Below are positions 76-35,863 of a stretch of DNA of 64,000 nucleotides, piece by piece (the stretch's first letter is position 1; the number at the start of each line of letters is the position of its first letter). Under the pieces are notes generated by a model. That model was not told where the DNA came from and searched no databases. It was given only the letters and a program-made list of their open reading frames with translations. Origin of the DNA: a virus. Made by a program: the position numbers and the translations under genes. The stretch is from the IMG/VR virus record IMGVR_UViG_3300045988_087402. The stretch is one strand, 5' to 3'.

Positions 76-101
76 GGCCACAAGGGCGAGAGGGTGTTCC
101 G
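76..101 (+). repeat. GC-rich conserved element, copy 1 (GGCCACAAGGGCGAGAGGGTGTTCCG; extended conservation about 66-110). Intergenic.
   Basis: Near-identical to six other copies at 825-849, 10123-10148, 12870-12893, 35839-35863, 52931-52956 and 53136-53161. It is a GC island in an AT-rich background. Confidence 0.85.
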
Positions 102-311: not shown

Positions 312-959
312 TTACGAATCTCTAAATTCGTCTTTTCCATGTTCTTCTCCATTAGCTGATACATGTTTCCATTCTTTATATTTAATATCTCTTTTAGCAA
401 GTATATCACTAATTATAGCAAATGATTTATCATATTCTTCATAACATTTATTTTTATTAATATAAGCACAATCGTAAATAGGAATCATTATAGTATTAGC
501 ATAAGCTTTTGGTTTATTAACTTCATTTTTCATTATAATATTATTATTTTCAGTAAGAGCTTTAAGAACAGTTGAACCAAGTGGAACTATAATTAAAGGA
601 TTAATAGCTTTAATTTCTTCTATAAGATAATGTATACAATTTTTAATATATAATTTTTCATTATCCGTACCATAACATTTTACAAGATAAGTTAAATAAC
701 TCCATTCATCAAGTTTATAAAGAGTTATAGCTTGTCTAAGTAAAATATTATTTCTACCTGTAAATGGTTCTCCAATTTTAATATCAAGTGTAGAAGGAGC
801 TGCACCAATAAAGCAAATAGATTTCGGAACACCTCTCGCCCTTGTGGCCATAATACCGTGCATCCTATTATTGATAAGAGAACGATAACACGATGAACAA
901 TGAATGCCGAGTAAGTCTTTCCTTGCTGACATTTGATTTTCGGCCTGTTTTCTGCCCAT
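312..959 (-). CDS. Uracil-DNA glycosylase, family-4-like (UDG superfamily)
   Basis: A Cys cluster (CSSCYRS) is followed by VPKSICFIGAAPS...GEPFTGRNNILL. This resembles the UDG4 VFGEGxP...VGEAPG...GxPFVGxAGxLL pattern with a preceding Fe-S Cys motif. GC-element copy 3 lies in-frame in this ORF and encodes MATRARGVP. Confidence 0.55.
   Translation of the reverse strand: MGRKQAENQMSARKDLLGIHCSSCYRSLINNRMHGIMATRARGVPKSICFIGAAPSTLDIKIGEPFTGRNNILLRQAITLYKLDEWSYLTYLVKCYGTDNEKLYIKNCIHYLIEEIKAINPLIIVPLGSTVLKALTENNNIIMKNEVNKPKAYANTIMIPIYDCAYINKNKCYEEYDKSFAIISDILAKRDIKYKEWKHVSANGEEHGKDEFRDS
825..849 (-). repeat. GC-rich conserved element, copy 3 (reverse orientation), in-frame inside the UDG CDS
   Basis: Plus strand reads CGGAACACCTCTCGCCCTTGTGGCC. 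The reverse complement ATGGCCACAAGGGCGAGAGGTGTTCC is translated as MATRARGVP within ORF 312-959. Confidence 0.85.
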
Positions 960-1445: not shown

Positions 1446-1616
1446 ATTTTAAATAGCATGTATAGATTCTAAAAAACTATAAATTAAAATAAGTACAAAA
1501 CATATTGCAAGGAATTGTCCTAAACAACCATCTACATCTGTAACATGTTCATTTTCATTATTAGAATAACTATCTCTGTAGTCATCATCATCGTAATACA
1601 TAATTATAATATAATT

Positions 1617-3119
1617 TTAATATTTTAATATAGCTTTTTTTCTGGCTCGACTTAAAGCAACATAAATAAGTCGATTTCTCATATTAATATCATACGCCTT
1701 TTTATATCCTTTCGAACTTTGATACCAAGTAATATCTGTTAAATCTACAGCAACATTATCAAATGTACTTCCTTGTGATTTATGAACAGATAGTCCAAAT
1801 CCATAATCTATATCTTTTTTAATAACTTTTTCATTACCATAAGCATCATGTATTACAACAGGAATTAAAGTAAGAAAACGATTTTTAAAATTATAATACG
1901 CTTTCCAACCACCTCCTATACGTTTTAAACCATTTATATAAAGAGTTTGTAATACACGTTTATAAAGATTAAAACTTGCATCAGTATGGTCAACAATTAA
2001 GAAAGGGTCTGTCTTCCTTTCATCATACATAGATTGTAAATTAACTCCAAAGGTTTTAATTCCCTCATCTGATACATAATCTATAAGTTCATATATTATA
2101 TAATCTTCTGAATTAAGTATAATAGGTTCACTAAATTCATTCATTATAGTATTATATGAAGTAAATAAGTCATTCATACAAACTGCTGGAAGATTATCAC
2201 CTAATAGATTATTTCTAACATATTGATTCCAATTAAGAACATTATTATTTGTATAACTTAATATACGAATATAATCTGTATTAGACGGAATACCTTTTTT
2301 ATTATTACCTATAAAAGATTCACTACCTATTTCTTCTATACATTTAGATTTAAAATCTTCTCTATATAATAATTCGTATCCTCTATCGTTTATAATATTA
2401 CTTCTATTATTAATAATATAATTAAGAAAAGTATTACCTTTATTTTGAATATCATATCTAATAAGACTAAACAATTCAAGTAAAGGATTTCCTTCTTCTT
2501 GTCTAACAATAGTATCTAAAACTACTTTTCTCTTAATTGTAGCAAAAGTTGGTGACATATTTTCTTTAACAGGAGGTAACTGTAAACTATCACCAATATA
2601 TAAAACTTTTATTTTATGATTAGCACATACTTTTGTTATACGATTAAACAAACCTGTATTAACCATAGAACATTCATCAAGTAGTACAATTTTATAATTA
2701 ACAATTTTTAAATCAGAAAGTTGGTCATATTGCGGATTAGTTGGGTCAAAAGTAGTTAAATCTACATTCGGCTTTAATCCTAAAAGAGAATGTAGAGTTT
2801 TACCTTTATGATTTACTGTATTTTCTAATACTCGAAGAGCTTTATGTGTAGGAGCACTAATTGTCCAAGTTTTATCAATAATATTTTCAATAAAATATTT
2901 CATGATAAACGTTTTACCTGTTCCAGCATAACCTTCAAGAGTACAAAACAGTTCATTACTTTTATACCAATCTTCAAGTTGTTGTACAGCTCTTTCTTGA
3001 CTCGGATAAAGTTTAATATTACTATTTTTAACTTTATTAATAGCTGTATTACTTTTATTATTTACATTTGTATTAGCTTTTACAATATTATCTAATTTAT
3101 TTTTTTCAGTATCATTCAT
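1617..3119 (-). CDS. SF1B DNA helicase (Dda/RecD/PIF1-like)
   Basis: Walker A GYAGTGKTF, Walker B/motif II LLDECSMV, motif III YIGDSLQLPPV and motif V/VI SVHKSQGSTFDNV are all present. These are hallmark motifs of RecD/Dda-type SF1B helicases. Confidence 0.8.
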   Translation of the reverse strand: MNDTEKNKLDNIVKANTNVNNKSNTAINKVKNSNIKLYPSQERAVQQLEDWYKSNELFCTLEGYAGTGKTFIMKYFIENIIDKTWTISAPTHKALRVLENTVNHKGKTLHSLLGLKPNVDLTTFDPTNPQYDQLSDLKIVNYKIVLLDECSMVNTGLFNRITKVCANHKIKVLYIGDSLQLPPVKENMSPTFATIKRKVVLDTIVRQEEGNPLLELFSLIRYDIQNKGNTFLNYIINNRSNIINDRGYELLYREDFKSKCIEEIGSESFIGNNKKGIPSNTDYIRILSYTNNNVLNWNQYVRNNLLGDNLPAVCMNDLFTSYNTIMNEFSEPIILNSEDYIIYELIDYVSDEGIKTFGVNLQSMYDERKTDPFLIVDHTDASFNLYKRVLQTLYINGLKRIGGGWKAYYNFKNRFLTLIPVVIHDAYGNEKVIKKDIDYGFGLSVHKSQGSTFDNVAVDLTDITWYQSSKGYKKAYDINMRNRLIYVALSRARKKAILKY

Positions 3120-3122
3120 ATA

Positions 3123-3482
3123 TCAAAAAGGATTTTCTAATTGATTATTATCTCTGTTAATTTCCTTATGTAATATAGAAAAAGCAACGATAATAGAATT
3201 TTCATAAGTTGTATCATTTATATCTTCAATATCTACTTTAGCAAGTAATTCCATAAAAGTTTCATCAAAAGGATGGATATTATATTTATATATTCTAAAA
3301 CTATCTGGAAGAATAACAATTCCCATTTTATGTTTAGTAACTAAAAAATGATTTATTATAGTAAATTGAAACTTAATTGGTAACTTAGTAAAAAAAGCAG
3401 ATATATTATTATTATTTTCTCTAAGATATTCAGTAAAACTATTAAGAGCTTTATTAAAATTTCTTATCTTTTCTATTAGCAT
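3123..3482 (-). CDS. Hypothetical protein (early/replication arm)
   Basis: 119-aa ORF tightly packed behind the helicase on the same strand. Confidence 0.4.
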   Translation of the reverse strand: MLIEKIRNFNKALNSFTEYLRENNNNISAFFTKLPIKFQFTIINHFLVTKHKMGIVILPDSFRIYKYNIHPFDETFMELLAKVDIEDINDTTYENSIIVAFSILHKEINRDNNQLENPF

Positions 3483-3912
3483 TTTTAATATTATTTTGTG
3501 ATTTTAAATAACAAAGTTTACTAATAGTATTTACATAATCTATATCAAGAATAAAATAACCATCTTCTATAATACCTTTTATTCTTTGACGAGGTTTAAC
3601 AATACTCCAATATTTAATTGTAATATCTAATCTCGTACCATTTTTACTATTTTTCTTAATAGTCCAAGGTTTATGTTGATTATTAGTAATACCATTAGAA
3701 TATATATAATCAACATTATTTAAATCTTCTTGATTTATTTTAATAGGAATAAACTCGTAAGGTTTTTTATTTGATTTAGCATAAAACTTATTATCATAAA
3801 GAATAGCGACAGTATGTTTACTGCCGCTATTTTCTTTATCATTACTTCTTGTTCTTACTATACCTCTTTGTATATTATTCAGTTTCTCATAATTCATAAT
3901 TATTTTCCACAT
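3454..3912 (-). CDS. Hypothetical protein
   Basis: 152-aa ORF, co-oriented and overlapping its neighbours in operon-like packing. Confidence 0.4.
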   Translation of the reverse strand: MWKIIMNYEKLNNIQRGIVRTRSNDKENSGSKHTVAILYDNKFYAKSNKKPYEFIPIKINQEDLNNVDYIYSNGITNNQHKPWTIKKNSKNGTRLDITIKYWSIVKPRQRIKGIIEDGYFILDIDYVNTISKLCYLKSQNNIKNANRKDKKF

Positions 3913-4931: not shown

Positions 4932-5172
4932 TAGAATAAGAATCCAAATCTCTAATATTAATTTTAGGCATTATATTTTATTTATATCTTTATGATATAC
5001 ACAAATATTATTTTCAAAAATATTATCGACAATTCGTTTATCAAGTCTTTTACAAATATAATAAGTTTTATTATCAACTTTTGTTTACGACTTTTATATG
5101 AATATATTTCTTACAATAATGTTCTTTTGGAATAACTTTTGGATTAATTTTAGATTTCATAGTTTTAATAGT

Positions 5173-5460
5173 TTAAATATAAACAACAGAAATATTACGT
5201 ATATACATAGATTTTATATCAATATAATAATCATATATCATAATATCTTCGGTAACTTTTTCTGTAATTTCTTTTATAAGTTCTATAATAGATTCTGAAT
5301 TAGAAGTTATTCTAATATTAGAATAATTAGCAACTATTTCAAAATAATCACCATCTATTATAATTCCATTTCCATTTTCAGGTATAACAGTAAGTATACA
5401 AGTTTTTGAATCTTTGTTAATAATAAAATTATCCATAATTATAAGTTTATTAAATTGCAT
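5173..5460 (-). CDS. Hypothetical small protein
   Basis: 95-aa ORF, co-oriented with the arm. Confidence 0.3.
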   Translation of the reverse strand: MQFNKLIIMDNFIINKDSKTCILTVIPENGNGIIIDGDYFEIVANYSNIRITSNSESIIELIKEITEKVTEDIMIYDYYIDIKSMYIRNISVVYI

Positions 5461-5561
5461 AATAAAAGGATGTAATATTAATATATAATTAATACCACAT
5501 CCTATAACTAAAATATAATCATCTTAAACATAATCTTTATAATAAAGATTATTATCTTTTG

Positions 5562-5647
5562 TACCGAAAGCGGGAATCGAACCCGCACGACCTCTTATGG
5601 TCATAGGATTTTAAGTCCTACGTGTCTACCTATTCCACCATTTCGGC
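5562..5647 (-). tRNA. tRNA-Leu, anticodon UAA, type II with a long variable arm
   Basis: The minus-strand sequence GCCGAAATGGTGGAATAGGTAGACACGTAGGACTTAAAATCCTATGACCATAAGAGGTCGTGCGGGTTCGATTCCCGCTTTCGGTA folds as a cloverleaf. The acceptor stem is 7 bp (GCCGAAA/TTTCGGT with one G-U). The anticodon stem is TAGGA/TCCTA with loop CTTAAAA, giving anticodon TAA. The variable stem is GACC/GGTC. The T arm is GCGGG-TTCGATT-CCCGC. Confidence 0.85.
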
Positions 5648-5656
5648 GATTAAAAT

Positions 5657-5689
5657 AAGTAGTAAGATTTATCACAAATGTTACTACTT
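5657..5689. ncRNA. Stem-loop A. The stem is 9 bp (AAGTAGTAA/TTACTACTT) and the 15-nt loop is GATTTATCACAAATG. It lies 9 nt from the tRNA-Leu 5' end.
   Basis: Direct reading. It is paired with stem-loop B at 5750-5780, which has an identical loop but a different, fully compensatory stem. Both are preceded by TAAAATAA. Confidence 0.6.
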
Positions 5690-5749
5690 TGTCCATTCTA
5701 AACCTCTGACTATTTTATCATGAACAATGAAATTAATTTATAAAATAAT

Positions 5750-5780
5750 GCCAATAAGATTTATCACAAATGTTATTGGC
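5750..5780. ncRNA. Stem-loop B. The stem is 8 bp (GCCAATAA/TTATTGGC) and the 15-nt loop GATTTATCACAAATG is identical to that of stem-loop A.
   Basis: The loop is conserved and the stem has covaried against stem-loop A at 5657-5689. This is a structural, RNA-like conservation signature. Confidence 0.6.
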
Positions 5781-5879
5781 TTAATAATTAACCTTAAAAA
5801 CAAATAACTTTTATGAAAGAAAGTTAAGTCCTAACATGTTTAATTCTTCTATGAAACACTTTATTATTAAATATGTGTT

Positions 5880-5990
5880 TTTTATCATATTCTACTCGGC
5901 TGCCTTCAGGTCGAACGCGAGAATCCTCGCCGGACGGCCGGCGCGCGTCATCACGGGCCCCAGCCTTGGCGGCCTCTAAATCGAAAGGTT
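5880..5990. other. Isolated GC-rich island of about 110 nt (for example GCCGGACGGCCGGCGCGCGTCATCACGGGCCCCAGCCTTGGCGGCC) with local stems (GCGAG/CTCGC, GACG..CGTC, GGGCCCC) in AT-rich intergenic DNA. Candidate structured RNA or acquired fragment.
   Basis: Composition is completely unlike the flanks. There is no ORF of 60 aa or longer on either strand and I could not fit a tRNA cloverleaf. Confidence 0.35.
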
Positions 5991-6220
5991 TGAATTTATA
6001 TTCTATATCTATTTCTTTATTAGATAAATAATCCTGTTCATAATCACCGAGCCTGCATTTCCAGCAGCTTTTCCACTACAAAGTTTAATCTTATTTTTTA
6101 TATCTTTTTTAATAGTGAGTAAATATAAATATTATTTTTCAAAATCACAATAATTATTTATAAACTATTGCTAATATCTTTTAATATATCTTTTATTTTA
6201 TCATTAAATATAATACTATA

Positions 6221-6439
6221 TTAATAAACAATACAACTTCCCATTATATCAATTTCTTTATGTGCATCTCTAATACAAGAAATAATAGTAAGTGCACTAT
6301 TTATATAAGTTTCTCTATTATCAAATTGAAGTTTTATACTATTAACATTGTCATTACGTTCTACACATCTAATAATTATATTACTTTCTGAATAAGTAAC
6401 ACTATATACATTTTCTATTTTTATAGTTTCATGAAGCAT
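6221..6439 (-). CDS. Hypothetical small protein
   Basis: 72-aa ORF, co-oriented. Confidence 0.3.
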   Translation of the reverse strand: MLHETIKIENVYSVTYSESNIIIRCVERNDNVNSIKLQFDNRETYINSALTIISCIRDAHKEIDIMGSCIVY

Positions 6440-6542
6440 ATCCTGTTTATTAGATATAATACTATTAGGAGTAATAACGAGTTTGGTATCTGTATTATTT
6501 CTTAATATATCTAATCTCGGATGTTCTATAATATTTTCTTTT

Positions 6543-6926
6543 TCATAATTTATTATTTATATGTATACTTTCTTTATATTCACGAATAGGATTCATATTA
6601 ATATCATCATCTATCATATTTGATATAAAAAGTTTTACACTATTAAAACTACTATATTTCTCAAATATAAGTTCAACATAACCTAAAGTCTTTTCCTTTA
6701 TATTTATTCGATAATCATAAATATCATTTTTAGGATTATCATATACACCAAATGTTACATCTTGAATATTAGTATAATCTATATTAATACACAAATCTTC
6801 ATTATTATATTCTTCACTATCATTTGGCAATAAATCAGAAACATAAATTTTTAAAGTTTCTATATCCTTACCGTATATAGTATAATTAGGATAATTAGGA
6901 ATATTAACTATATTGACAATTTTCAT
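6543..6926 (-). CDS. Hypothetical protein
   Basis: 127-aa ORF, co-oriented and tightly spaced with 6948-7286. Confidence 0.35.
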   Translation of the reverse strand: MKIVNIVNIPNYPNYTIYGKDIETLKIYVSDLLPNDSEEYNNEDLCINIDYTNIQDVTFGVYDNPKNDIYDYRINIKEKTLGYVELIFEKYSSFNSVKLFISNMIDDDINMNPIREYKESIHINNKL

Positions 6927-7583: not shown

Positions 7584-8205
7584 AGTATTATATTTATATT
7601 ATATTTATAGTATTATTATATCTTCTTGTAAATTATCTCTTCTAATTTTACTTATACATCTTATAAAATTATTTACAAATTCTATAAATAAATCTTTATT
7701 TTCAAAAGATATAGAAGTAATTCTTAAATCATCAGGTTCAACATTAGATTCAAAACTTAAATCATCGTTGTCTAAAAATCTAATGTATAAATATTATCAT
7801 GTGTTATTATATTTCTTATATCATTTATATCATAAGTAAATATCTTATCTTCTATTGTAGTTACAATTAAAGTTTCTTCTAATATTTAATCGTAATAGAT
7901 TTTATATTATAAGTTGTACCATTTGGTATAATAATTTTTGCATTTTCCATAGTAATAATTTGATTAGCTTCCATAAGATAATTTGTTTTAAGTTTAATAT
8001 TAATTTATTTTAAATAAAATTTAAATTCTAATGAAAATAGTATGACAATTAGTATTCAAAAAATTATTCAAAAGAGTCTACAAATTGATAATAATCAACA
8101 TAAAGATAATCCTTTTGAAAATAAGATTAAAAAAGATAATTAAATGAATAATGAAGATTATCTTTATGTTGATAAAGAAAATAGATTAAAAGAAAATGAT
8201 AAAAC

Positions 8206-8784
8206 GAATAAAGATAAATGTAAAGAAATATAGAATTAAAAGATGATATTAAAAATGATTAAAAAGATGAAAAAAAATATGATAGAAAATATGATAGAAA
8301 ATATGATAGAAAATAAAGATGAAGAAGATGATATTGAAAATAAAGATGAAGATAAATTAAATGATTAAAAAGAAAATAAAAGAAAAGATGATTAAAAAAT
8401 GATTAAAAAGAAAATAAAAAGAAAATAAAAAGAAGATGATTAAAAAGAAAATAAAAAGAAAATAAAGAAAAGATGATTAAAAATGATAATGAAGAAGATG
8501 AAGAAGATTAATATAAAGATAATGAATAAAATGAAAGAAGATTAATATAAAGATAATGAAGAAGATGAAGAAAAGATAATGAATAAATGAAAGAAAAGAT
8601 AATGAATAAATGAAAGAAAAGATAATGAATGATAATGAAAGAAATGAAAGAAAAGATGAAGAAGATTAATATAAAGATAATGAAGAAGATGAAAGAAAAG
8701 ATAATGAATGATAACGAGATATTTAATAAAAAATAAAATAATGAAAAGATGAAGAAAAAGATGAAAGAAAAGATGAATATTAAG
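8206..8784 (+). repeat. Purine-biased repeat block. 8206-8714 on the plus strand contains no C at all (509 nt), and 8206-8784 contains a single C. It is built of nested imperfect tandem repeats.
   Basis: Direct base-by-base reading. Units include GATGAAGAAGAT..., GATGATTAAAAAGAAAATAAAAAG, GATAATGAATAAATGAAAGAAAA, and (ATATGATAGAAA)x3 at 8277-8312. Confidence 0.85.
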
Positions 8785-8994
8785 CTCCTTTTACACCTTC
8801 ATTTACTTTTCATCCAATTATTTTTACAATTATTTTTCTTCTTCATTTTTCTTCTACTTTTCCTCCACTTATATTTCAAAATAACTTTTTTAATCTTTTT
8901 AATCTTTTCTCTACTTATTATCAATCTTTATTCAACTTATTTTCCAACTATTTTTCAAACTATTATCTCAATTCTTTCTCCACTTATTATTAAT
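8785..8994 (+). repeat. Pyrimidine-biased block. 210 nt of the plus strand contain no G (CT-rich low complexity). G-poor composition continues to about 9150.
   Basis: Direct reading. It abuts the C-free block, so the local strand skew inverts sharply at about 8785. ORF 8749-9147 on the track is a low-complexity artefact. Confidence 0.8.
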
Positions 8995-9578
8995 GCTATT
9001 TTTCAATCTTCTAATAAAATAAATTTTGGTCTTCATATTGAAATTCATTTTCTAATTATTGAAATTAATTATCCATTTAATATTTCACTAACTTATTCTC
9101 CAGCTATTCTACAAACTGCTTCTTTTATTAATTTTATAGTTACTTGAAGAATACGTTGGACAAATAGTATATTTAATAGTATTTCAATTAATCGAAATTC
9201 TAATGATATTCTTCATAAACCTTCTCGAAGAATACGTCGGATAAATATTCTTCTTATAATTATTATAAATTCTTATGATATAGCTGGTAATATAATTATT
9301 AATATAATTATTAAACCTGTTAGTATACCAATTATCATACTAATTATATCATTTCGAGATATAGTGCATCTGGATTTATTCATATAGTAAATGGTATTAC
9401 AACTGTTATGAAAATTGATAATCTTAATGTTATACAAAATGGTCAATTTTTGCAAATGATTGACTATCATATCCTATAAGAAAATCTTATTGTTATTTGA
9501 ATAACAATGCCATTTTCCAATGAATTTTTTTTGGAAATTATTTGGAAAATAGATTGAAATTTATTTTTTATAAATTAT

Positions 9579-9620
9579 ATAATTATTAATATAATTATTA
9601 ATATAATTATTAATATAATT
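9579..9620 (+). repeat. Tandem 12-mer array (ATAATTATTAAT), about 3.5 units. Related copies occur at 9291-9316 and 10036-10058.
   Basis: Direct reading. Confidence 0.7.
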
Positions 9621-9710
9621 AGTCTACAAGAAAGCGGTCAAAATACGGGTCAAATTGATATTAGAATTACTGCAAAAGTTACTGCAAAAGAACCATTAGG
9701 AACTCTTTTT

Positions 9711-9758
9711 AGAAATACTATTAGAAATACTATTAGAAATACTATTAGAAATACTATT
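9711..9758 (+). repeat. Tandem 12-mer array (AGAAATACTATT)x4. It is preceded by the duplicated ACTGCAAAAG at 9669-9690.
   Basis: Direct reading. Confidence 0.75.
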
Positions 9759-9780
9759 AGAAAATATAATGTAAATAAGA

Positions 9781-9835
9781 TTACAATTAATTGTCCATCT
9801 TCCGAATATTCTTCGGATAGAAATGTTGAAATTAG
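9781..9835 (+). repeat. A direct repeat of about 50 bp (ACAATTAATTGTCCATCTTCCGAATATTCTTCGGATAGAAAT...) that recurs at 10214-10268. It contains the hairpin TCCGAA-TATTC-TTCGGA.
   Basis: Direct reading. It has a 6-bp perfect stem and a 5-nt loop. Related GAAGAATACGT(T/C)GGA(C/T)AAATA motifs occur at 9157-9178 and 9226-9247. Confidence 0.65.
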
Positions 9836-10083
9836 TATGACATTTAATGGTAAATAAATTACTAAAAATAATACGGAAAATGAAGATGCTCCAGATAATA
9901 TATTTCGAGATAAAATTGAAGATATGATTGAAGATAATTCTAAAGATGGATTTGAAGGTAGACTTTAAGATAATTTAGAAAGTGTATGTAAAGATGATTG
10001 TAAAGATATAGTTTGAGATTTAAATTGAAATACAATTATTAATATAATTATTAATACAATTTTAAATTATATAAATATGTTAG

Positions 10084-10104
10084 TTGCAAAGACAGTTGTA
10101 ACGT
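10084..10104 (+). repeat. GTTGCAAAGACA-GTTGTAACG, a two-unit remnant of the 12-mer array seen at 1-60. It lies upstream of GC element copy 2.
   Basis: Same unit and same arrangement as at the window start, so the whole block of about 80-100 bp is a direct repeat about 10 kb apart. Confidence 0.7.
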
Positions 10105-10122
10105 TTGGACGTATTGTTTAAT

Positions 10123-10148
10123 GGCCACAAGGGCAAGGGAGTGTTCCG
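10123..10148 (+). repeat. GC-rich conserved element, copy 2 (GGCCACAAGGGCAAGGGAGTGTTCCG, followed by ATATTCGTTAATC)
   Basis: Aligns to copy 1 including the ATATTCGTT tail. It carries ATG plus 12 codons (MATRARECSDIR*) as in other copies. Confidence 0.85.
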
Positions 10149-10383
10149 ATATTCGTTAATCATTTATTTAATATTCATTTTACAATTAATAGAAATAATA
10201 ATGTAACTTCTATAACAATTAATTGTCCATCTTCCAAATATTCTTCGGATAAAAATATTAAATTTAAAGATACATATATTAAGATTATAAATAATAGGAG
10301 AGTTTTTTATTTTAAAGATATTATAACTTTTATCCATAAACACTTTAAAATTAATAATAGAACTCTCCTATGAACACTTTTAA

Positions 10384-10764
10384 TTAAAACAATAACACAA
10401 ATATAATACCTAATATTGAAACTAATAAAGCTATTGATAGAATAACTATTATAGTTTTATATGTTTTATTAGCTTTAGAAGCTAATATATATCTTACGGA
10501 AGTTTTACTTAAAGCTATTGATGAATAATTTGTTAAACGAATTAACATCTTTTTTAGTTCTTTACTTTCTAATAAAAGCTCTGATATAATTCGTTTTAAA
10601 TCTTCATCAGTATATATTTCTGGAATTAGTTCATTTACTTCTTTTTGAACATCTTTTTCTTTATCTGTTAATTCTGCTGATACTTGTACTTTTAAAAGTC
10701 TTATTAAAGTTTTTAATTGAACTGTTGCTATAATTATTTTTACAAATTCTTTATTAGTTTTCAT
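10384..10764 (-). CDS. Hypothetical tail-anchored membrane protein (C-terminal TM IIVILSIALLVSILGIIFVLLF)
   Basis: 126-aa ORF. It is one of only two credible genes inside the 5.5-kb repeat region. Confidence 0.4.
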   Translation of the reverse strand: MKTNKEFVKIIIATVQLKTLIRLLKVQVSAELTDKEKDVQKEVNELIPEIYTDEDLKRIISELLLESKELKKMLIRLTNYSSIALSKTSVRYILASKANKTYKTIIVILSIALLVSILGIIFVLLF

Positions 10765-13153: not shown

Positions 13154-13573
13154 ATGGAAAATAAAGTTATGATTGGTTATCGTGAGCCTAAGAGTATTAT
13201 TGATGCTAAAGCTGTAGGAAGTAAAGTTATAGTAAAATCTTATTTTGAAGTTTCACCTCTTATGGTAGAAGATGATAAAGCTCTTCAGAATATGTCTCCT
13301 ATAAAAATAGAAGTTGTAGCTTATGGTAGAAATACTTATGATATTGAGATAGGAGATAAAGTTCAAATCAATCCTACAAATGTTTCAAGAATTAATTTTA
13401 AATGGAATGATAAAAGTATTATGAATTATCTTGAAAATTCTAAATTAAATAAGATTTTATATAGAGGAAAAGAACATGTTATTTGTGAGGAATATTATCT
13501 TTGTGAAATGATTGATATTCTTATTGTAGATACTTATAATGAAAATAATATACGAAAAATTCTTGAAAATTAG
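13154..13573 (+). CDS. Hypothetical protein (first gene of the rightward arm)
   Basis: 139-aa ORF. A start-stop overlap (ATG at 13574 follows TAG at 13571-73) couples it to the next gene. Confidence 0.45.
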   Translation: MENKVMIGYREPKSIIDAKAVGSKVIVKSYFEVSPLMVEDDKALQNMSPIKIEVVAYGRNTYDIEIGDKVQINPTNVSRINFKWNDKSIMNYLENSKLNKILYRGKEHVICEEYYLCEMIDILIVDTYNENNIRKILEN

Positions 13574-13975
13574 ATGTTATTAGGTTTTATACAACATAAA
13601 CGAATACTTAATAATTTATATAAGACATTTGATTCTTTTGCTCCTAATGTAAAGAATAAAGAGTGGCTTGATAAATTAGATAAACTTACAGATAGTGATA
13701 AAGAAGAATTGTTAGTTCACTTTTATAATTGTCAAAGTTTGACAATAGTTAAGAGAATGAATACTATAACTCCTTGTATTCACGTTCCGATGCTTGGTAA
13801 TTTTAAAATTGTTGCTCAAAGATATTATAATACTATACATAAAGATTTCTTTGATACTCTTGATAAAAAAGAGAGACAACGAATTTTACAAACTGTTTTC
13901 GGAACTAATAAACCTGTTATTTATAATCCAGACGAACATTATGCCAAACTTAGTATCGACCCAGCTGATGTCTAA
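13574..13975 (+). CDS. Hypothetical protein
   Basis: 133-aa ORF with translational coupling. Confidence 0.45.
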   Translation: MLLGFIQHKRILNNLYKTFDSFAPNVKNKEWLDKLDKLTDSDKEELLVHFYNCQSLTIVKRMNTITPCIHVPMLGNFKIVAQRYYNTIHKDFFDTLDKKERQRILQTVFGTNKPVIYNPDEHYAKLSIDPADV

Positions 13976-14954
13976 AGGCAGGATTCTTTTCTTTAATGAA
14001 GAGAATCATAAATATGTTGATGATTTGGGTAATCCTTATATTTCAGTTACTACTTTAATTCATAAATATACAGAAGAATTTAAAGAGAATGAAATAGCTA
14101 AAGCCTGTGAGAGAATAGGTAAGAATCCAAATCATCCAAAATATCTTACTTATAAAGGTAAGTCAGCTAAACAACTAAAACTTGAATGGCAAGCTGAAAG
14201 AGATAGAGCGTGTTCTGAAGGAACTAAGAAACATAATTATCTTGAAGATTGTATTAAATCTAATAACGGATATAAAAAGAATGCGAAAGGATTTATAGAT
14301 GATAGAATATATACAATAGATGATATTATAAAGAATCATAGATATGGTATATTAAATATTGATTCTTTTGCTAAAAGTGGTATTAAAGATAGGTATCCGA
14401 CAATTTACAATACTATTGCTGGTCTTGTAAATGTCGGATTTAAGATTTATGCAGAAATTGGAACTTATGATTATAAATATTTAGTAAGTGGTTTAATTGA
14501 TGTTTTATTAGTTAGAGATAAAGAATTTATAATATTAGATTGGAAAACTAATAAAGCTCCTATTAAATTTGAAGGTGGTTATTGGTCTAAAAATAAGAAC
14601 GGAGAACTTGATTTTGATGACACTGGAAATATATTAAATGAATATAATTATACAGGTAAAACATTTCAATATCCTCTTGATAAATTAGAAGATAGTTCTG
14701 GTAATATATATGCTATGCAATTAAGTACTTATGCACATCTTGTTGAAACTTTTGGATATAAATGTGTAGGACTTATTCTATGTCATATTAGAACAGTGCC
14801 TGAAAAACGAGATATATTTGATAGAGTTATAAGAAATGAATTTCAAGTTGTAGAAATAAAGAAGTTTCCTTATTTGAAAAATGAAGTTGTAACTATGTTA
14901 AATGATTATGCTAAAAAAAATATAAATAATACTACAATTAATAAATTTATATAG
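13941..14954 (+). CDS. PD-(D/E)XK nuclease (RecB/Cas4/lambda-exonuclease-like)
   Basis: The motif GLIDVLLV...EFIILDWKTNK matches the hhD...hhD(Y/W)KT core of RecB-family nucleases. The start was chosen at the in-frame ATG at 13941 (MPNLV) rather than the track's 13794. Confidence 0.5.
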   Translation: MPNLVSTQLMSKGRILFFNEENHKYVDDLGNPYISVTTLIHKYTEEFKENEIAKACERIGKNPNHPKYLTYKGKSAKQLKLEWQAERDRACSEGTKKHNYLEDCIKSNNGYKKNAKGFIDDRIYTIDDIIKNHRYGILNIDSFAKSGIKDRYPTIYNTIAGLVNVGFKIYAEIGTYDYKYLVSGLIDVLLVRDKEFIILDWKTNKAPIKFEGGYWSKNKNGELDFDDTGNILNEYNYTGKTFQYPLDKLEDSSGNIYAMQLSTYAHLVETFGYKCVGLILCHIRTVPEKRDIFDRVIRNEFQVVEIKKFPYLKNEVVTMLNDYAKKNINNTTINKFI

Positions 14955-35838: not shown

Positions 35839-35863
35839 CGGAATACCTCTCGCCCTTGTGGCC
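35839..35863 (-). repeat. GC-rich conserved element, copy 5 (reverse orientation), intergenic inside the late arm. Reverse complement: TTTAATGGCCACAAGGGCGAGAGGTATTCCGAAATTCGTTAATC.
   Basis: Shares the core plus the ATTCGTTAATC tail with copy 2. It carries ATG followed by an open 30-codon minus-strand micro-ORF (MATRARGIPKF...). Confidence 0.85.

Follow-up and report, generated by a model that had tools for sequence, protein, structure and literature searches.

Two small hairpins, here called HP1 and HP2, stand in tandem just upstream of the tRNA-Leu(UAA) gene in a 64,000-nt stretch of DNA from virus record IMGVR_UViG_3300045988_087402 (hereafter the window, to whose positions, in plus-strand numbering, all coordinates refer). 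Their paired structure covaries, shows a clear preference for the sense strand of the flanking genes, and is conserved in form and in position across related phage lineages. We consider with moderate confidence that HP1 and HP2 constitute a cis-acting sense-strand RNA element that is recognized at its apex and influences termination or processing where transcription enters the tRNA. The core of the locus consists of the following features.

5657..5689, minus strand: HP1, the proximal hairpin, 9 nt 5' of tRNA-Leu; plus-strand arms AAGTAGTAA/TTACTACTT; sense strand AAGUAGUAA-C-AUUUG-UGA-UAAAU-C-UUACUACUU.
5750..5780, minus strand: HP2, the distal hairpin; plus-strand arms GCCAATAA/TTATTGGC; sense strand GCCAAUAA-C-AUUUG-UGA-UAAAU-C-UUAUUGGC.
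5561..5647, minus strand: tRNA-Leu(UAA), directly downstream of HP1 (ARAGORN; Rfam tRNA, 62.2 bits).
5648..5656, minus strand: U-rich spacer AUUUUAAUC from HP1 to the tRNA 5' end, invariant in 22 relatives but for C/U at its last base.
5740..5749, minus strand: U-rich tail AUUAUUUUAU, directly 3' of HP2, reading TAAAATAA on the plus strand.

Both hairpins lie exactly where the initial annotation of this DNA had placed them, and its statement that the first stands 9 nt from the tRNA 5' end, on the tRNA strand, is confirmed by the position of the tRNA-Leu(UAA) gene. HP1 is composed of a 9-bp lower stem, a C·C mismatch, an upper stem of 4 bp plus a G·U pair, and a UGA apex (GUGAU if read as a pentaloop). 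The upper part of HP2 is the same as that of HP1, and its lower stem, of 8 bp, is different but paired. An exact 21-mer, TAAGATTTATCACAAATGTTA, is common to both hairpins (5663-5683 and 5755-5775, 92 nt apart); a 21-mer repeat at up to two mismatches occurred in none of 100 shuffles of the window, and the fold z-scores of the hairpins range from -2.7 to -4.7. The 15-nt loop described at the outset as identical in the two is indeed so, even as part of the longer 21-mer, but it is not a loop throughout, as it folds into an ATTT/AAAT helix, with an added G·U pair on the sense strand, and an apex of only 3-5 nt. The 1x1 mismatch is G·G on the plus strand and C·C on the sense strand. The word TAAAATAA, taken originally for an upstream element, is in the transcript sense a downstream U-rich tail, UUAUUUUA, of each hairpin. 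The observation that half of the stem positions differ with pairing kept does hold, in that 4 of the 8 common lower-stem pairs differ between HP1 and HP2 and all 4 are compensated. Because the 21-nt core is identical in the paralogues while these lower pairs differ, the apex is likely to be sequence-specific.

Two paralogues alone make a thin case for covariation; the proposal of a selected secondary structure gains further support from orthologues and from sister lineages. The locus was gathered in about 22 versions from IMG/VR, ENA, and Logan human-gut assemblies by means of the 21-mer and the neighboring gp81-like protein. Among them HP2 occurs with the arms GCCAAUAA/UUAUUGGC, with GCUGAUAA/UUAUCAGC, in which two adjacent pairs are altered on both sides (the complete genome cr127_1 and six metagenome or virome contigs), and with GCCAAUAG/CUAUUGGC, found in relative L131, where the apex is CGA in place of UGA. 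HP1 carries AAGUAGUAA/UUACUACUU or, in L131, AAGUACUAA/UUAGUACUU, a G-C to C-G exchange, and in L141 its apical G·U pair is replaced by A-U. The strain set thus holds four independent double substitutions, all compensatory, and no stem-breaking variant; across its six distinct sequences, 96% of the cells are paired, 6 of 14 pairs are altered on both sides, and the covariation score is unmatched by shuffles. The L131, L141, and L160 variants also break the "start-stop" reading of UUG-UGA-UAA, which was rejected. Two other search routes were discarded: the 15-mer used as a family probe in a scan of IMG/VR gave more than 120 matches, nearly all due to chance and located in unrelated contigs without pairing flanks, and a 22-mer from the tRNA D-arm, used as an anchor, matched unrelated phages without these hairpins.

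The small neighboring proteins (gp81-like and gp78-like) have almost no diverged homologues, and the sister lineages were reached through the helicase, which is 74% identical in L160 and 51-55% identical in L161-L166, L161 and L166 being at 52-55%, with gene order conserved. All of these lineages (L160-L166) hold a tRNA cluster at the equivalent place, and the element is always found within this cluster, co-oriented with the tRNAs. L160 has a single hairpin, AAAUGGUAG-C-AGUU-GUGA-AACU-C-CUACCAUUU, followed by the U tail AUUUUAUUAAAU and located 60 nt past tRNA-Gln and 147 nt ahead of tRNA-Leu. In L161, the hairpin GGAGUACU-U-CUGUUG-UGA-UAAUAG-U-GGUACUCU, then UUUUCAUG, comes after tRNA-Thr and has the U-tract UUUUUCAUG. 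L166 has two copies, each 4 nt ahead of a tRNA, namely AUAACAAUU-A-UUGUCG-UGA-UGAUAA-A-GAUUGUUAU at tRNA-Leu and AUCAUAAUC-U-UUGUUG-UGA-UAAUAA-U-GAUUAUGAU at tRNA-Glu. A looser variant stands 5 nt ahead of tRNA-Glu in L162-L165, with a 7-bp outer stem, a large internal loop, and CAUUG-YGA-UAAUG; its outer stem covaries as well (CCUACAA/UUGUGGG versus CCUGUAA/UUACAGG). The element therefore occurs in two settings, either 4-9 nt before tRNA-Leu or tRNA-Glu (HP1, both L166 copies, L162-L165) or free-standing with a U-tract (HP2, L160, L161). Across the lineages the hairpin keeps one architecture, with lower stems that are unrelated in sequence. What stays constant is the 1x1 mismatch (C·C, U·U, or A·A), a U-rich/A-rich upper helix, and the apex G-Y-G-A-U, with UUG-YGA-(U)AA kept throughout. 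The initial annotation had allowed that relatives might keep the loop without pairing flanks; the outcome favors structure.

The pairing of the family was scored on ten distinct hairpins. A MAFFT alignment misaligned the family and was replaced by an N-padded alignment registered by hand. In this alignment 97.2% of the 142 cells are paired and 12 of the 15 pairs are altered on both sides, and the covariation score of 0.877 compares with 0.20 in shuffles, none of 500 shuffles reaching it. When the partners are slid by 1-3 columns, pairing falls to 29-65%. On the sense strand, 14 of the paired cells are G·U or U·G, which would be A·C on the other strand, and the opposite pattern does not occur. 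Since the wobbles are confined in this way, and those among the strain variants of a further hairpin, HP4 (described below), are alike, a sense-strand structure is supported, and this would most simply be the transcript. Overall, compensatory pairs and strand-specific wobbles are those generically expected of a structured cis-acting RNA, and the hairpins are, as judged from these alignments, a selected structure with a sequence-constrained apex and a free, covarying lower stem.

The element is rare and narrowly distributed. Covariance models built from the strain set (R1) and from the family set (R2), which score HP1 at 68.9 and 41.4 bits, respectively, find only two copies in the window and in the complete cr127_1 genome, so that the further loops with covarying stems envisaged earlier were met in relatives and not elsewhere in the genome. 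Neither model finds extra copies in the 15-kb loci of the sister lineages, where R1 is too narrow, missing the L161 and L166 hairpins. No homologous element was found in Intestiviridae (cr271_1, ctcc615, cr8_1), Suoliviridae (cr118_1), or a Lak phage. Rfam 15 gives the tRNA only for the whole window at the gathering threshold, and at E<=10 over 5000-6600 it adds only spurious sub-threshold matches (mir-71, 15.9 bits against a gathering score of 50). Full-text literature searches returned no description of the hairpin element, and the motif is lineage-specific and apparently undescribed. Its composition of lower stem, 1x1 mismatch, upper stem, and GYGAU apex makes it searchable in viromes.

Structured tRNA leaders are not limited to this element. 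L162 (4940-4976) and L163 (4945-4977) have another class of hairpin 4-5 nt before tRNA-Leu, with a conserved A-rich loop (ACCAAGAR...) and covarying stems (CCACUU/AAGUGG versus ACCUAGU/ACUAGGU), suggesting that in these phages the 5' flanks of tRNAs are marked by hairpins of several families. In this phage group, the 45 nt upstream of tRNAs have a mean fold z-score of -1.19 versus -0.41 in control windows, and z lies below -2 in 7 of 22 tRNA leaders versus 8 of 84 control windows.

The 3-kb stretch around the hairpins is 91% identical to cr127_1, an uncultured crAss-like phage with a complete genome of 83.4 kb classified as Crassvirales, Crevaviridae, Kahucivirus, and the window is, by sequence, a human-gut crAss-like phage close to it. 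The G+C content of the region is 20-30%, the window's open reading frames (ORFs) between about 300 and 7600 are all on the minus strand, and tRNA-Leu(UAA) is the sole tRNA of the window. In cr127_1, the small hypothetical genes gp08-gp14 are followed by the tRNA and then by a replication module (helicase, UDG, DNA polymerase, primase, ligase), all co-oriented, with the structural genes on the opposite strand. Because the tRNA and the flanking genes are on the minus strand, HP1 and HP2 are upstream of tRNA-Leu in the transcribed sense, at the border between the small-gene block and the tRNA/replication module. The remaining features of this border are listed below.

5690..5739, minus strand: inter-hairpin spacer, well conserved among strains and containing AGGUUUAGAAUGGACA.
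5796..5825, minus strand: T0, a terminator-like hairpin, AACUUU-CUUUCAUA-AAAGUU, then a AUUUGUUUUU tail.
5530..5552, minus strand: HP3, a 10-bp stem 8 nt past the tRNA 3' end.
5467..5503, minus strand: HP4, terminator-like, with 16 pairs and a U tail that reaches the start codon of the next ORF.

T0 closes the upstream small-gene block about 15 nt before HP2; among strains its stem varies with compensation, and the AUUUGUUUUU T-tract is invariant. HP3 and HP4 occupy the region 5467..5552 between tRNA-Leu and the next ORF, and the strain variants of HP4 show sense-strand changes from G·U to A-U and from U-A to U·G, a pattern which indicates that this region is read in the form of sense-strand RNA. 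In the inter-hairpin spacer, the word AAUGGACA recurs upstream of the L161 hairpin. The strain alignment revealed no conserved structure in this spacer, and an inverted repeat at 5711-5747 was dismissed because L131 does not retain it.

Just upstream of the hairpins, the slot of a small gp14-like gene varies among strains. In the window, and also in L143, L146, and L148, it is occupied by an island of about 90 nt with about 70% G+C (window 5880-6000), within a phage of 25% G+C. Other strains have at this slot a full foreign gene of about 50% G+C, with a 103-aa ORF without a convincing Pfam match, and cr127_1, L129, and L064 have a plain AT-rich gp14. The slot is, from this comparison of strains, a hypervariable (moron) site, and the window copy seems to be the deleted remnant of a foreign gene.

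These observations would be accounted for as follows. HP1 and HP2 would be paralogous copies of a small conserved RNA stem-loop, transcribed in the sense of the flanking genes within an untranslated leader that would run from the end of the small, presumably early, gene block into tRNA-Leu and the replication module. The lower stem would need pairing only. The upper part, comprising the 1x1 mismatch, the U-rich/A-rich helix of 4-6 bp, and the G-Y-G-A-U apex (either a G·U-closed YGA triloop or a GNRA-like pentaloop), would be constrained in sequence and is the likely surface for protein recognition. We infer from this layout that the hairpins are transcribed, that a protein reads the apex, and that the effect is on either termination or processing.

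The first option is factor-dependent pausing, termination, or read-through at the tRNA entrance. It is suggested by the U tail that follows the hairpin in the window phage, L160, and L161, and regulated read-through, with a logic like that of boxB, would be plausible at the junction of the small-gene block with the tRNA and replication genes. The second is that the hairpin may define and protect an RNA end that termination generates or that RNase P makes by cutting 4-9 nt further on; it is suggested by the HP1, L166, and L162-L165 hairpins, each of which precedes the RNase P site of a tRNA by 4-9 nt. Once cut, the upstream RNA would carry the hairpin as its 3'-terminal structure, or the hairpin could form a structured, insulated leader. 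The two mechanisms are non-exclusive. Of the roles listed in the initial annotation, that of a tRNA processing or stability element fits best, being consistent with a sense-strand hairpin, G·U pairs, and the short distance to tRNA-Leu or tRNA-Glu.

Several points weigh against this interpretation. The evidence for transcription of the hairpins consists of their co-orientation and the wobble pattern. Single-stranded DNA of the sense strand would likewise tolerate G·T wobbles, and the element may, though less probably, act at the DNA level. The ten-sequence alignment leaves out the L162-L165 variants with large internal loops. No candidate apex-binding protein was found, and the ORFs neighboring the hairpins have no informative Pfam or PHROG matches. 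The U-tail is missing where the hairpin abuts the tRNA by 4-5 nt (L166, L162-L165), and therefore termination is not its universal role. Finally, we know of no established function for a stable hairpin 4-9 nt before an RNase P site.

Among known systems, one possible likeness is to boxB of the lambda-type nut sites, which is likewise a short RNA hairpin with an upper helix of about 5 bp, and whose GNRA-like pentaloop may have a counterpart here. The resemblance extends to a conserved apex that a protein reads (in the present case presumably), to two copies per genome, and to a placement upstream of the replication genes, in untranslated sequence that separates early genes from terminators. The apex GUGAU/GCGAU (GUGA in L160) fits G-N-R-A(+1) in sequence, and L141 has AUGAU. 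Unlike boxB, which has one copy in each early operon, the hairpins here would stand in tandem on a single transcript; they also have a long covarying lower stem and the 1x1 mismatch, and several homologues abut tRNA genes. As for a boxA-like linear partner, no common motif was found at a fixed distance, AGGUU(A/U)A occurring 5-22 nt upstream in some copies only, and no N-like arginine-rich protein was identified among the neighboring ORFs, although one might have escaped recognition. To our knowledge, no nut/boxB-type system has been described in Bacteroidales hosts.

A second likeness is to the PeSLs, the composite terminator/promoter stem-loops of T4-like phages (PMC2839356, PMC4122927), which are also repeated small regulatory stem-loop cassettes with stems that vary between copies, and which are placed at the borders of hyperplastic regions, much as the hypervariable gene slot here is just upstream. 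PeSLs are dispersed and number in the dozens, and what is conserved in them is a sigma70 early promoter that comes after the stem-loop (PMC4122927). The hairpins described here, by contrast, number only two in 83 kb, it is their apex that is conserved, and no convincing promoter follows them. In addition, the apparent recombinants between hairpin copies seen in L148 and L154 are an assembly artefact, as discussed below.

The simplest alternative is that HP1 and HP2 are plain intrinsic (Rho-independent) terminators or insulators in tandem, which stop read-through from the small-gene block and whose apex is conserved through stable, fast folding and recent common ancestry, without being specifically recognized. 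Hairpins with sense-strand U-rich tails are indeed found in the window phage (AUUAUUUUAU and AUUUUAAUC), L160 (AUUUUAUUAAAU), and L161 (UUUUUCAUG), and HP1 and HP2 adjoin the terminator-like T0. GNRA-type loops are, moreover, common in terminators. However, the stems are AU-rich with an internal mismatch, and a simple terminator scan did not call either hairpin, there being too few G-C pairs. HP1 would lie only 9 nt ahead of the gene to be silenced, where efficient termination would block the tRNA unless a promoter lay inside, and the homologues that abut tRNAs at 4-5 nt have no U-tract (AAAC, CAGUC). Furthermore, apex, upper helix, and 1x1 mismatch are kept across genera where the lower stems are unrelated, which exceeds what a terminator needs. 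Plain termination is thus unlikely as the explanation.

A bolder extension of the RNA interpretation would be that the GYGAU hairpins are sites for an undescribed phage factor or a hijacked host RNA-binding factor, which would switch transcription or processing at the border of the early small genes with the tRNA/replication module and so form a temporal switch of the boxB/N kind, or that the two-hairpin leader is a decoy RNA that titrates a host protein. We hold this to be quite unlikely, although with such a switch or decoy, if true, crAss-like phages would have their first described RNA-based regulatory device. These phages are among the most abundant human-gut viruses, with mostly uncultured lineages and a gene regulation that is almost unexplored, and the element, being conserved in several lineages of a Crevaviridae-like kind, offers a testable handle on tRNA expression and on the timing of the switch to the replication genes. 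In kind, it belongs among the familiar leader and terminator hairpins of phages, and is useful rather than startling.

Explanations at the level of DNA fare less well than the RNA element. The identical cores might suggest tandem duplex-DNA promoters at which host RNA polymerase would start the tRNA, with TGTGATAA(T) serving as an element of the extended -10 type or AACATTTG as a box similar to the -7 box of Bacteroidetes, an arrangement that would resemble tandem rrn promoters or the middle promoters of crAss-like phages. A host-type middle promoter motif is found upstream of a tRNA gene in 12 of 14 crAss-like phages (bioRxiv 10.1101/2020.03.07.982082). The tRNA here requires a promoter within the 177 nt from T0 to the gene, HP1 reads TGGACA-N16-(TGT)GATAAA about 20 nt before the tRNA, and L161 and L162 read TGTGATAAT. 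Such promoters would nevertheless leave the covarying, sequence-unrelated arms and the G·U-type substitutions unexplained, and the boxes themselves are not kept: the final T of the -10 element is A in the window phage, the corresponding word in L160 is GAAACT, and in HP1 of L141 TTTG becomes TTTA, with the G lost. There is no -35/-33 element at a consistent distance in HP2, L162, and L161; the hairpin cores give xAnnTTTG only, with -33 candidates at 15-26 nt, which falls short of both the Bacteroidetes TTTG-N19-TAnnTTTG and sigma70 promoters. The clear host-type promoters of this phage are different, an example being TTTG-N19-TACATTTG before gp66, and a start inside the hairpin would preclude the RNA hairpin. 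Tandem promoters are, on these grounds, distinctly improbable. A duplex-DNA operator pair, which had also been listed, is unlikely in that the arms covary instead of keeping their sequence.

Another possibility is that the hairpins fold in single-stranded DNA, where they would serve the crAss virion RNA polymerase as promoters of the N4 hairpin type or else act in priming or as an origin in front of the replication module. The hairpins do stand at the start of the replication gene block, and, as in the promoters of the N4 virion RNA polymerase, a small-loop hairpin is found a few nt upstream of a transcribed product. A hairpin base 4-9 nt before the tRNA start resembles N4 promoter geometry. 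The crAss virion RNA polymerase prefers single-stranded templates, in that gp66 is active in vitro on single-stranded or denatured DNA alone, and crAss-like early promoters yielded no sequence motif (bioRxiv 10.1101/2020.03.07.982082). Against this stand the wobbles, which favor the non-template (sense) strand and are A·C mismatches on the template, a pattern that also disfavors the hairpin promoter for a phage RNA polymerase proposed in the initial annotation. The hairpins (31-33 nt), with their much longer stems, exceed those of N4 promoters by far; each genome has only two copies, neither of them at the putative early genes; and the switch in GC skew, at about 8 kb, is 2.3 kb distant. A role of this kind is very unlikely. 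The resemblance of the plus-strand core to a DnaA box (TTWTNCACA, 7-8 of 9) was dropped, being weak in AT-rich sequence and not kept in L160.

Two contigs of low coverage have to be considered before recombination at this locus is judged. In the equivalent of window 5561-5790, L148 and L154 have one hybrid hairpin with non-matching arms, joined across the exact 21-nt repeat, and these single hairpins, taken initially for natural deletions, were reread as k=21 collapses. In L154 the phage tRNA-Leu is, in addition, joined to Alistipes sequence that comprises a tRNA-Leu, a terminator, and the rho locus; the switch is within the tRNA T-arm, right after a 21-nt word common to both tRNA-Leu genes, and the resulting hybrid is not a valid tRNA. 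An exact-match genome scan found nothing for the bacterial flank of L154, which was assigned to Alistipes by a protein-based scan. Because the joins cross exactly 21-nt identical words in both contigs, they are best explained as k=21 assembly chimeras, and would be evidence neither for a deletion variant nor for an attachment junction. The 21-nt hairpin repeat and the 21-nt identity of the phage and Alistipes tRNA-Leu genes can thus yield chimeras mistakable for deletions or integration junctions.

Arm-type recombinase sites around an attP core in tRNA-Leu, as suggested in the initial annotation, or end hairpins of a transposon or miniature inverted-repeat transposable element can be given almost no credence: the nearby tRNA gene, the hypervariable slot just upstream, and the switch inside the T-arm of L154 speak for them, but the complete cr127_1 has no annotated integrase or transposase, the L154 contig, the sole phage-bacterium junction, is a chimera that also collapses the hairpin repeat, arm sites are conserved linear words and not covarying palindromes, and the genome has no other copies of the element.

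The phage tRNA-Leu(UAA) (5561-5647) is identical to that of an Alistipes sp. (L170, 1063-1149) at 70 of 87 positions, with two identical blocks of 21 nt; the comparison copy from A. putredinis is L171. The sister-lineage copies are identical at 75-77 of 87 positions and have the acceptor and anticodon stems in common with it. These likenesses give a weak hint that the host may be Alistipes or another member of the Rikenellaceae, or that the tRNA may have been captured from such a host.

Some observations were made elsewhere in the genome. A GC-rich word of about 35 nt, CGAAUUUCGGAACACCUCUCGCCCUUGUGGCCAUUA, occurs in the window at 76-92 (minus), 833-849 (plus), and 35847-35863 (plus), and in cr127_1 it is intergenic, near 1.8, 11.9, 19.7, 28.7, and 28.9 kb. 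Its copies precede gene blocks, namely the polymerase block, the primase, and both sides of gp50 (one inverted), and it may function as a promoter specific to the phage, as a site for a regulator, or as a structured RNA. One window copy is inside the N-terminal extension of the 215-aa "UDG" ORF, and therefore the true start of "UDG" is probably further downstream. In addition, the stretch at about 7600-10400 in the window (cr127_1 1520-3807), about 2.3 kb at the divergent module switch, is mostly unannotated and rich in short tandem and direct repeats, and the GC skew flips its sign there; it is a candidate origin or early-promoter region. Finally, the DNA polymerase of cr127_1 is annotated as two coding sequences separated by a gap of 622 nt (13459-14080), which has a more normal G+C content, reads as structured, and looks like an intron or intein-type interruption.

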